Source: Candidatus Hodarchaeota archaeon (GTDB lineage: Archaea; Asgardarchaeota; Lokiarchaeia; Sigyniarchaeales; SOKP01). Taken from it: DNA of 64,000 nt. Of the stretch, positions 19,305 through 25,100 are shown one piece after another. Under the pieces are notes generated by a model, which saw only the letters and a program-made list of their open reading frames with translations, had not been told where the DNA came from and made no database searches. Position numbers and translations under genes: made by a program. The first letter of the stretch is position 1; each line of letters starts with the position of its first letter. The DNA lies in contig JBHLKM010000011.1 of NCBI GenBank assembly GCA_048886685.1, positions 79,115-143,114 of the forward strand. Direction: 5' to 3'.

Positions 19305-22300
19305 TTATAAATCAGGAATTAACTTCAATAATGTCGCAACTATGTTTCCAGTATCATTAATAGTATTATAATCATCAATGACCTCAAGATTTCTCAATTT
19401 CTCAAGAATTTGATTTACTTCTTTTGATAACTCGACATGTCTCTTTTTAAGATATTTATTAATGTGGTTCTCATCATTATTACCTTCGAAGATAGCAAAT
19501 AGCACATTTCTATCATCTTTATCCATTGAATTTATGTAATACTGAAATTGCTCAATTAAATAGTTAGTTCTAGGATTTATAGCAAAAACAATCTTATCTT
19601 CTTTTAATTTTTGAAGACTTTCAAATGACTTGACCTCTTCTAATCCTGTTGTTTTCAGATGGTTAATCATGTCCCTCAAATAAAATGTGGATTCAAATTC
19701 TTCACTTTGAGCAATAATGATAATTTTTTTGGCAATATTTTTTCTCGATAATCCATTCAAATAATTTTCTGCTTTATTTTGGATTAATTGATGCGGATAC
19801 AATAAATCAGCTTCAAATACTTCTTCCATAAGTTTCGTTACTTGAATTTCATCTAAAACTTCCCCAGTAAAATTTCTTAACCGTTCTTCAAATTTTTCTT
19901 CAAATACATCATTAAATGTTTTAAGTTTTGCCTTTAATGATTCGTGAGGTCTTCTTAAGAGAAGTAATGCTACTCTTACATATTTCCCTTCATTAAGTAT
20001 AATTTTAAATTGCCTATAAGATAATTCTTCTAAGCCTCCATCAATCTTTTGCATTTTTGAGCCTATTTCTGCCCCAAAAGAAGATATAGCGCTTAAAAAT
20101 CCAGAAATTAAAGTCTCATCTATTGGAACTTCAGCCAAGCTCTTACTAAAAACAGGTACACCCCCATCTTTTGTTAATATTAAACAATATTGAATATTTT
20201 CAATATCTGAGAGCTTTTGATACATCTGCTTTAAATTTTGCCGTTTTCTCCTGCTTTTTGGTTTTATATATCCATAAGTTAATATAAGAGATATAGCTGT
20301 AACAACAAGTGCACTTATAAGAATAATCATTCCATAATCTTCAAAGAAGGCCATTAATTCTGTAGTAATTTTAATTTTGTTAGATTCTAATACAAGACTT
20401 TCATAATACCCATGTAATATCTCATCAATCTCAACTGTAATGTAATAGTTATTCCCCTCCTTTTTAAAATCTAAATTTACTGTTGCTATACCCTCGTCAT
20501 TCGTAGTGCCGGAATCACTGTCAATTAAATTTCCGCTACCATCACTTAGTTTGAATATTAATTTGACATTTGTTAATGGATTTCCACCGCTGGTAGTTAG
20601 AATAACAGAAATAGCATACTTACCTAAAATATAACGAGAAGCTGGCGATACATCAAAAGCAATGTTAGCTGTTATTTTATCTTCTACATTTATAAAGAAA
20701 CTTAATGTTTTGTTATTCACTTTATTTGATCCTTGAAAATCAATAGTGATATTCAAATAATTACTACTAAAGCTATTTGGAATTGAAAATGGAAACCAAA
20801 GTGTATTATTTCCGGTTACAAATTGAGTTAGTACTACCGGAAATAGATCATAGTTAAAAGTAAATACAACGGGAAGACCGCTAAAGGAAGGAGCACCGAT
20901 GTCAGAACTCCAGAAAGTCATGTTAAATGTTATTTTTTCACCATAACGATATGATCCATCACCATCTTCATCCAAAATATTATAATTAAAATCAGAATTC
21001 CATTTAGGCAATATAATTTCAGTTCTAGAAGTTGAATTATAAGCGATTGTAGTGGATCCAAGAAATTCAAAATATGTGGTAAAGTTGTCTTTACCTTCTA
21101 CTATTTCAGATATTGTATACCCGCACTCTCCATTTTCATCAGTGTATAATTGTTGGGTAATAAATGGAGAAGATTCGTCATCATAATAACTTGAAAAGAG
21201 TATTATTCGATTTTGTAGTGTTTCTTCAATATCTTTTATATCCATTCTTACTCTAAAGGTTGCAGAGTATCCTACTCTAGCTGTATTATTCGGGAACTCA
21301 ATCATTTCTAATATAACTGGTATCTTTCCTTGAATTAATTTATTAACACTTGCTTCTGAACGTGCTATCTCTTCTTGCCCTTCATACACAGCTCTAATTG
21401 TGATGTTTTGACCTTCATATTCAGAAGAAATAATATATTCATAAATGCTTACTCCATCGGATCCAGTTATTGTATTAACTAGAAAATTTTCTGATCCGAT
21501 CGTAATGTTTAGCATAATTGTTGCAAAAGCAATTGTGCTCCCATTTATGCTATACATAAGGGTTGTTCTGATTTCAAATTCTTTTAATATCCTTATTGTA
21601 TTAGGAACATTTATATCAAGTTCGGTTGGTTGTTGAGGTAGGATTGTAAAATTAACTAAATTGCTTTGAGAATCTTCACAATTAAATGCAGTTCCATTAA
21701 TATAAATACTATATGGTCCTGCCGATAAAGAAGTTAAAGAAATTTCTTTTGAGTATACACCGCTCATTAGTAGGTTTAAAGATCCACTTAATTTCTGAGA
21801 AGCTCCCTGATAGATAAAGTATTCTAAAGTCCCATGATTATTAGGTTTAGGATTTTCAGGATCAATAACCTTTAACATTGTAGCATAAATCGTAATTTCT
21901 CCTTCAGCATAAACAGGATCCACATTTTGGAGCGTAATAGCTGTGGGTATTTTATCGATGAAAATTGTTACATTGATTTCTTCAATATTATAATCACTAG
22001 CGGAGCATTTAATGAATAGGGTCTCATTTTGTCCCGTATTTGTTGCATTTAGACCTGTTGTATCTAGTGTTAGGTTATATAAACCATTTCCTAATTCCCT
22101 TCCTTCAAAGTAGTTCTCTGTATCACCTATGGTCCCTAATACCAAACCTCCTGTTATCGGATTTTTAGTTGCTTGATCTGTAATGTTGATTTGAATTTGA
22201 CTGTTAATAGTATCATTAACAAAGGGAATATTGTTATCATTAATTACATATTGGGAAAATGGATTAAGATAGGCACCCTCAACTATATTAATCTCTAAGA

Positions 22301-25100: not shown

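Follow-up and report, generated by a model that had tools for sequence, protein, structure and literature searches.

In lineages ranging from bacteria to eukaryotes, dimers of longin or roadblock domains serve small GTPases as platforms (Levine 2013, as cited in PMC10933270). Asgard archaea possess dozens of Ras-superfamily GTPases together with dozens of longin and roadblock domains, and both the pairing of these regulators with GTPases and the access of anchor-less GTPases to membranes are almost uncharted in these organisms (PMC10933270, PMC4917890). In the same literature, 41 longin domains are attributed to Lokiarchaeum, some of them fused to GTPases. The expansion of longin and roadblock domains in Asgard archaea, their GTPase and two-component fusions and soluble structures have already been described (PMC10933270, PMC4917890, bioRxiv 10.1101/2020.10.19.343400), as has a rich adhesin-like surface proteome (PMC9834061, bioRxiv 10.1101/2025.07.22.663070). 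Here we describe a gene at positions 19305–25100 of the minus strand of a 64,000-nucleotide stretch of DNA (the window; positions 79,115 to 143,114 of contig JBHLKM010000011.1, assembly GCA_048886685.1) from Candidatus Hodarchaeota archaeon (GTDB: Lokiarchaeia; Sigyniarchaeales; SOKP01). The gene probably encodes a type-I, heavily N-glycosylated surface protein, and the modelled fold of its membrane-proximal cytoplasmic domain is that of a longin. Our preferred reading, to which we assign a probability of roughly 0.4, is that of an adhesin-like surface protein whose tail would be a membrane-anchored docking platform for a small GTPase. No description of a longin behind the transmembrane (TM) helix of a giant surface glycoprotein was found in the searchable literature, which leaves aside the primary longin census (Klinger 2016) and is not proof of absence.

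The gene is a single open reading frame (ORF) of 1931 codons plus stop; all features given for it below lie on the minus strand. A Kyte-Doolittle scan of the protein found just two hydrophobic segments, at aa 3–29 and aa 1582–1612. The first belongs to the N-terminal leader (aa 1–28; 25017–25100), which has the basic n-region MKVKSKR followed by a hydrophobic core (peak 2.4 at aa 8–27) and looks like a Sec signal peptide. The second holds the single TM helix (aa 1588–1612; 20265–20339), the sole internal hydrophobic stretch (peak 2.54). It is followed by KPKSRRKRQNLK, and the 22 residues behind the membrane carry a net charge of +5 (median +4 in 35 orthologs). This basic juxtamembrane, or stop-transfer, region (aa 1613–1635; 20196–20264) has a pI of 10.6 and is modelled as a helix by AlphaFold2. 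By the positive-inside rule, the C-terminal 320 residues are therefore predicted to be cytoplasmic. The ectodomain (aa 29–1587; 20340–25016) is beta-rich and rich in N, S and T. Ahead of the TM helix 48 N-glycosylation sequons (NxS/T) are found, compared with 26.0 ± 4.6 (maximum 42) in 1000 composition-preserving shuffles; the tail has 2, with 2.0 expected from the shuffles, and orthologs have 40–68 outside and 0–5 inside. An earlier note on this DNA, made from the sequence alone, had named the 1931-aa ORF, the signal peptide, the sequon-rich ectodomain and the basic stop-transfer segment, and all are present where it put them; its placing of the single TM segment, at about 20267–20337, agrees as well.

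The structure of the tail (aa 1614–1931) was modelled with AlphaFold2 from an alignment of this protein and 35 full-length orthologs (mean predicted local distance difference test score (pLDDT) 84.8; predicted template modelling score 0.71). A juxtamembrane helix (model residues 2–22) precedes a domain at aa 1636–1763 (model residues 23–150; 19812–20195). Between model residues 23 and 148 the order is strand-strand-helix-strand-strand-strand-helix-helix; DSSP assigned strands to 23–30, 36–41, 77–82, 85–91 and 95–101 and helices to 49–69, 107–123/125–129 and 138–148. The hairpin, helix, three strands and two helices proposed in the earlier note are thus reproduced near the positions given there. 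The pLDDT of the domain is 79–94 except in the loop between helix 1 and strand 3. Helix 1 is formed by LISGFLSAISSFGAEI, the most conserved stretch of the whole protein, with invariant G, F, L, A and F residues, and strand 5 carries a conserved Arg (VRxAL).

A Foldseek search of the PDB yielded zeta-COP, sigma-adaptins, Sec22b, TRAPP subunits and VAMP7 among its top 20 matches, every one of them a longin (E 5e-5 to 9e-4); roadblocks appear from rank 21. In VIA-align comparisons of the domain the leading 49 rows are longins, headed by Sec22b (Z 13.9; 123 of 127 residues, 2.9 Å), synbindin (13.7), Trs23 (13.5) and sedlin (12.6), whereas the first roadblock, MglB, has a Z of 10.2. The alignments with longins reach model residues 150–158 and cover both C-terminal helices; those with roadblocks span model residues 17–19 to about 125–130 only. 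Inclusion of the C-terminal helices is the feature that parts longin from roadblock domains (PMC10933270). A roadblock as the better description of the fold was rejected on the Z-scores, and the longin fold that had been suggested for the membrane-proximal cytoplasmic domain is established at model level.

The eukaryotic longins compared comprise the N-terminal domains of Sec22b, VAMP7 and Ykt6, synbindin (TRAPPC4)/Trs23, sedlin, Bet5, the N-domains of adaptor sigma and mu subunits, zeta-COP, and SRX of SR-alpha. Like them, the modelled domain is built on a sheet of five strands, with a single helix packed against one side and the two C-terminal helices against the opposite side, and it superimposes on them over 114–130 residues (Z 10.5–13.9; root mean square deviation (RMSD) 2.5–3.5 Å). 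Unlike them, it lies directly behind a TM helix that is C-terminal to a giant ectodomain, a position in which none of them is found, and sequence identity is 4–16%. In longin SNAREs, as in plant phytolongins, a C-terminal anchor leaves the longin at the free N-terminus, whereas here the TM helix comes before the longin and a Pfam search of the tail found no SNARE motif (no PF00957 or other SNARE match). Among the tri-longin guanine nucleotide exchange factors of Rab GTPases (MON1-CCZ1, FUZ-INTU of CPLANE, HPS1-HPS4), structural matches were obtained with Fuzzy (Z 11.9), MON1A (9.7) and Mon1-Ccz1-Ypt7 (9.1), and the Fuz_longin_1 family is reached by sequence within the paralog family described below. 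These factors have three longins, however, while this protein has one, without a match to Fuz_longin_1 or Intu_longin_1.

By sequence the domain is barely within reach of detection, and its family link to MON1/FUZ-type longins is indirect only, running via a 135-aa paralog (L014). The hidden Markov model (HMM) of the domain retrieves this paralog at E 8e-6, and the paralog itself passes the Pfam family Fuz_longin_1 (30.9 bits against a cut-off of 26.1), which represents the first longin of FUZ, MON1 and HPS1. Among 46 family members, Fuz_longin_1 is matched by three, Longin by two and Robl_LC7 by two. No significant match was returned by NCBIfam or by a PDB sequence search with the full-length profile; with the domain profile nothing in the PDB was significant, the sole longin being AP-4 sigma (E 0.11).

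The logic proposed here is the same as that of Ragulator (LAMTOR1-5) and bacterial MglB, in which a membrane-fixed platform of the roadblock/longin superfamily receives an anchor-less GTPase (Rag and MglA, respectively). After the longins, the roadblock fold gives the second-best structural match, with MglB (Z 10.1–10.2), the chain 6u62_F of Raptor-Rag-Ragulator (8.7) and Asgard roadblocks (8.6). Here, however, the anchor would be a TM helix of the same chain, not a lipidated partner, and the fold is that of a longin, with the C-terminal helices matched and the N-terminal helix apparently not. Soluble structures from the same phylum and superfamily are those of a Lokiarchaeota Roadblock-Longin protein (8yqg) and of the roadblocks of strain MK-D1 (7yh1, 9jq8, 9jue; PMC10933270), of which 8yqg superimposes on the domain with Z 10.1–10.8 over 133 residues. 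The proteins described in that work are soluble or fused to GTPases, unlike this TM protein.

With its longin in front and helical and winged-helix-like units behind, the tail is reminiscent of NPRL2/NPRL3 of GATOR1. In the only alignment of the whole tail, Foldseek placed it over 363 columns on a 370-residue chain of 9o5a (KICSTOR-GATOR1; E 1.7e-3), with an RMSD of 17.7 Å and hence no global superposition. NPRL2/NPRL3 differ in being soluble, and no NPRL2 occurs in the VIA-align lists. 'NPRL2-like longin' proteins have been described in Asgard archaea by Liu et al., where they are fused to two-component signalling domains (bioRxiv 10.1101/2020.10.19.343400). Such fusions, together with the very diverse modules to which the present family is fused, would suit an alternative in which the longin is a small-molecule or peptide sensor like related PAS/GAF-like folds, used for inside-out control or a metabolic report. 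The invariant residues of helix 1, however, resemble core packing positions and not a pocket. We know of no ligand pocket or ligand in longin domains, which counts against a sensor as well, and we consider this alternative improbable.

Two further units follow the longin. The middle unit (aa 1764–1849; 19554–19811; pLDDT 87–94) is helical and basic (median pI 9.3 in orthologs), with a winged-helix-like order of elements; VIA-align of the C-terminal half, modelled separately (aa 1769–1931, pLDDT 93.4), gave no structure match covering aa 1764–1849 alone. The last 80 residues form an acidic domain (aa 1850–1931; 19308–19553; net charge −5, pI 4.8, ortholog median 5.6) that VIA-align identifies as a winged helix. 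The 'helical tail' of the earlier note is thus more than helices: the end of the protein is a winged-helix domain in the model. Model residues 82–162 of the C-terminal half match the N-terminal winged helix of Rio2 (Z 9.7; 77 aa, 2.8 Å) and RosR (Z 9.7; 76 aa, 2.5 Å), followed by more than 25 further winged helices with Z 8 or more, among them the domains of PadR, MarR, TubR and Orc1/Cdc6 (Z 8–9), values just modestly above the tool background of 7–8. Foldseek with the C-terminal half alone returned nothing significant (best E 0.2). Look-alikes of the tail in the ESM Atlas are soluble Asgard proteins with TrmB or HTH_47 (0.76–0.79); scores under 0.9 in this resource were rated as leads only.

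Because RosR, PadR, MarR and TubR, which superimpose with Z 8–9.7, are DNA-binding, the protein might be a membrane-tethered one-component transcription regulator of the ToxR/CadC type, with an ectodomain that senses and a winged helix that binds DNA at the membrane or after proteolysis. Many bacteria and archaea have TM transcription regulators (PMC10269533), and one soluble paralog combines a longin with an HTH_47/TrmB-like match (E 1e-4). DNA-binding winged helices are typically basic, however, whereas this one is acidic; protein-binding winged helices (Rio2 N-terminal domain, NLR, Orc) match equally well; the tail matches no Pfam HTH family, and the Foldseek result offers no support either. 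A regulator of this kind is therefore quite improbable in our judgement. The acidity instead favours a winged helix that would bind protein rather than DNA.

The membrane-proximal part of the ectodomain appears to consist of tandem Ig-like (Big_1 or macroglobulin-type) beta-sandwich repeats with a period of about 100 aa (aa ~1080–1560; 20421–21863). When ortholog profiles were compared with hhalign, the 100-aa windows of aa 1131–1431 were mutually similar with probabilities of 87–97%, and of 80% from the window at 1081, so that similar units of about 100 aa span aa ~1080–1530. The Big_1 family (PF02369) matches aa 1497–1558 with E 2.5e-7 and 31.1 bits, under the Pfam cut-off of 34.9; several orthologs have precomputed Pfam matches to PF02369, PF17789 or PF16640, and many to PF02369. 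From these profiles, about five predicted Ig-like sandwiches adjoin the membrane. In the first ~1050 residues no repeats were found at this hhalign sensitivity. For aa 30–530, the language-model look-alikes in the ESM Atlas fall into clusters of jelly-roll or lectin type, namely MAM, CBM_4_9, cleaved-adhesin and galactose-binding-like (0.78–0.85, again leads only). The acidic, D/G-rich DEDGDG loop, which had been likened to a calcium-binding loop, is present at aa 1377–1382 (20955–20972) but is lineage-specific: it is kept in the 8 closest orthologs only, while the remaining 56 sequences of the alignment have lost it or have something else in its place. The idea that it is a family-wide calcium site was therefore rejected.

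The architecture recurs in Lokiarchaeia, as had been expected. Full-length orthologs of 1900–2000 aa form about 78 clusters (tail identity 37–84%), labelled Promethearchaeota, Lokiarchaeota or Sigynarchaeota, and align end to end with 25–77% identity. They include proteins of Promethearchaeum syntrophicum MK-D1 and Ca. Lokiarchaeum ossiferum, both of which have the whole tail (39% tail identity in each case). The longin domain is the best conserved region, with a mean identity of 58% compared with 40–51% for other regions of the tail, and in distant orthologs the tail is 39–45% identical as against 25–31% overall. Such strong conservation of the tail, and above all of the longin, relative to the rest of the protein suggests an interaction module under constraint. 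Two orthologs from other metagenomes (P0035, 2833 aa; P0055, 2338 aa) have the same tail and an extra N-terminal extension with WD40 / beta-propeller Pfam families, which shows that modules can be added to the ectodomain without change to the tail.

The distribution was surveyed in 149 sampled genomes of the class with a profile of the ortholog-specific C-terminal half; this survey was relied on, a single-sequence survey of the phylum having recovered fewer orthologs. A strict ortholog is present in 28 of the 149 genomes, this genome counted. Without it, the figures are 14 of 124 for its own family and 10 of 13 and 3 of 3 for two other families. In its own genus, 5 of 47 sampled genomes have one. 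Genomes that do have the ortholog keep its sequence strongly conserved. The sequencing runs listed for this DNA were DNA metagenomes from sediment and mangrove, with no RNA among them. Five near-complete genomes of the same genus contain only paralog-type proteins, 27–33% identical. This patchiness may reflect transfer of the gene or its loss on several occasions, or else gaps in assemblies, to which a long gene with repeats is prone. In the five same-genus genomes without the ortholog, neither of the flanking genes was located at the thresholds used, which is uninformative on insertion or deletion.

Outside Lokiarchaeia, the nearest relatives of the domain that were found are soluble proteins. 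The closest of them, on Heimdall/Hodarchaeota contigs (L064-L076), have about 880 aa, with a HerA/FtsK-like ATPase at aa ~110–320 (PF01935, E 1e-18 to 1e-20) and a central longin at aa ~500–660; some 700 bp downstream of each, another small gene for a longin-like protein lies on the other strand (examples: L067:8489-11158 (+) and L074:11224-11643 (-)). To our knowledge, an ATPase-longin fusion with a paired longin gene has not been described.

When the ORFs of this 4.4-Mb genome were searched with the HMM of the longin family, 70 matched. Nine of them, this gene included, encode a leader, an ectodomain of 200–1590 aa, one TM helix and a longin no more than 70 residues from it, and four or five encode polytopic membrane proteins with the longin at the C-terminus. 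About 25 are TPR-longin proteins of 600–730 aa, several of them clustered on C2 (loci include C4:119790-121754, C2:27338-29404, C2:30056-31960, C2:34641-36596 and C2:36721-38814). A similar TPR-longin protein occurs in a Promethearchaeota metagenome-assembled genome (L079), and ORFs of 612–613 aa with the same partial longin match were found on two contigs, one from Thorarchaeota (L080) and one from an unclassified archaeon (L081). The remaining members are small, or have a winged HTH, weak MIT-like ends or, in one case, an Arf-like GTPase. The last is a 293-aa protein (L021, C21:26554-27435 (-)) with a longin-like region at aa 1–132 (family HMM envelope) and an Arf/Ras-like GTPase at aa 127–262; it is the sole longin-GTPase fusion among the 70, and a second small GTPase gene lies 772 bp from it. 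Two soluble paralogs of 457 aa (C10:137649-139022 (-), L026) and 467 aa (C22:12496-13899 (+)) match residues 6–286 and 6–261 of the 311 tail residues, i.e. past the longin, and both end, in the same place, in a weak MIT-like match that does not reach the Pfam cut-off (E 1.3e-4 and 5.7e-3), so that a family link to ESCRT-III/Vps4 is possible. The earlier note had envisaged paralogs with the same tail and other ectodomains. The longin is indeed common to the paralogs and the nine type-I members share the layout, but the winged-helix end is unique to this gene in the genome: no second copy was found there, and the region is specific to the ortholog group.

In two further loci the layout appears split between genes. 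At C19:5099-14666 a 2061-aa ORF is divergent from a gene for a soluble longin protein of 286 aa, and 1.5 kb beyond the latter lies a small GTPase gene; at C31:19385-24274 a 1036-aa ORF and, downstream of it in the same orientation, a gene for a longin protein of 306 aa are found.

On the GTPase side, a Cys in the last five residues was found in one of the 80 small-GTPase ORFs of the genome. Anchoring of the prenylation type thus appears essentially absent, as judged from these C-termini, and GTPases without a C-terminal Cys would therefore need a protein receptor at the membrane.

In the architecture that emerges, the non-repetitive N-terminal region of about 1050 aa and the approximately five Ig-like repeats project from the cell, one helix crosses the membrane, and the longin is located about 25 residues inside it, followed by the basic helical unit and the acidic winged helix. 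According to our reading as a docking platform, the longin would recruit a cytoplasmic partner at the inner membrane face. The leading candidate for this partner is one of the ~80 small GTPases without lipid anchors, because longin and roadblock domains are GTPase platforms in other lineages, because one paralog is fused to a GTPase and because of the near-absence of C-terminal Cys residues; longin-GTPase fusions have also been reported for Asgard archaea (PMC10933270, PMC4917890). Alternatively, the partner might be a soluble longin or roadblock protein completing a dimeric GTPase platform. A complex prediction with two copies of the tail (aa 1614–1931) scored 0.34 against a mark of 0.42 and counts neither for nor against dimerisation. 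In either case the protein would label a place on the membrane at which GTPase-dependent machinery acts, or pass news of surface contact to the cell interior. That the tail may couple to small GTPases in general is inferred from the roles of longins elsewhere and from the one fusion paralog.

Several observations weigh against this reading. Neither the tail nor the isolated domain matches the Pfam longin models (PF13774, PF19036, PF19031). Some eukaryotic longins, namely SNAREs and adaptor small subunits, do not act on GTPases. A GTPase is the fusion module in only one family member out of 70, the other modules being TPR, MIT-like, winged-HTH and polytopic membrane regions and, in the Heimdall/Hod relatives, the HerA-like ATPase; given this diversity, the domain is an adaptor of general use, and its partner here need not be a GTPase. 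Nor does gene context offer support. A small GTPase gene lies within 10 kb in 2 of 17 flanked orthologous loci, at differing positions, and an all-against-all comparison revealed no conserved neighbour of any kind across 23 loci. One of the 80 small-GTPase ORFs of this genome is found within 5 kb of 6 of 44 (13.6%) ORFs with a longin domain, as compared with 14.6% of all ORFs, and longin genes are thus not enriched near GTPase genes.

These figures also bear on the partners proposed in the earlier note, i.e. two tandem Ras/Rab-like GTPase genes in the window (28265–28837 (+) and 28985–29521 (+)), to which the receptor would signal. The pair is only 3.2–4.4 kb from the gene, and its products contain no Cys anywhere, hence no site for a prenyl anchor, so that a protein receptor would be needed. 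The two genes are on the opposite strand, however, and five unrelated genes lie between, encoding a CDP-alcohol phosphatidyltransferase, a methyltransferase, a cyclophilin-like protein, a DUF364 protein and an opposite-strand ORF overlapping the DUF364 gene. With the conservation and background frequencies given above, the adjacency is at chance level and the pair are not dedicated partners; a signal to these two GTPases is very improbable, and this part of the earlier interpretation was not borne out. Overall, that interpretation is partly supported, namely in its type-I receptor-like layout, its longin fold and the recurrence in Lokiarchaeia, while the observation on which it was built is confirmed. 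Directly after the GTPase pair lies a gene for a 1202-aa SNF2-family helicase (29551–33159 (-); SNF2-rel_dom E 1e-29, Helicase_C E 5e-26).

The lack of a conserved signalling partner gene in the 23 loci is also what would be expected of a purely structural or adhesive envelope protein. Its ectodomain would take part in an irregular surface coat or in cell-cell contact, and the tail would anchor, cluster or sort it without a GTPase, for example by homo-oligomerisation or by attachment to the cytoskeleton or ESCRT. Lokiarchaeia have no ordered S-layer and show many complex surface proteins in cryo-electron tomography (PMC9834061), Asgard proteomes are rich in adhesin-like proteins of type I, which account for a large part of them (bioRxiv 10.1101/2025.07.22.663070), and the present ectodomain is conserved end to end and not hypervariable. 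The weak MIT-like ends of the two soluble paralogs hint at ESCRT-III/Vps4 contacts; these matches are sub-threshold, however, and belong to paralogs, not to this protein. A tail conserved above its ectodomain is moreover unusual for a mere anchor, and with a strict ortholog in 14 of 124 genomes of its own family the protein cannot be an essential envelope component there. We regard the structural alternative as somewhat unlikely, though only a little less likely than the platform reading. If anchoring or sorting is all that the tail does, the protein would be one more unremarkable adhesin-like component of the extensive surface proteome.

If, on the other hand, the tail is a docking platform, a longin anchored by the same chain as a giant ectodomain would be a concrete candidate both for a docking site and for a link from outside to inside. 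Since orthologs are present in both cultured Lokiarchaeia, pull-downs and localisation are feasible. The predicted set of TM-anchored longins in this genome comprises this protein, eight other type-I paralogs and the four or five polytopic proteins. A bolder proposal, which we find rather unlikely, is that such proteins supply the membrane receptors so far missing for those small GTPases of Asgard archaea that have no prenyl or myristoyl anchors. If it were true, each surface protein would set a membrane address for a GTPase switch, or relay surface contact to it, and the system would represent a prokaryotic forerunner of organelle identity and of receptor-to-GTPase signalling, built unlike any eukaryotic receptor.

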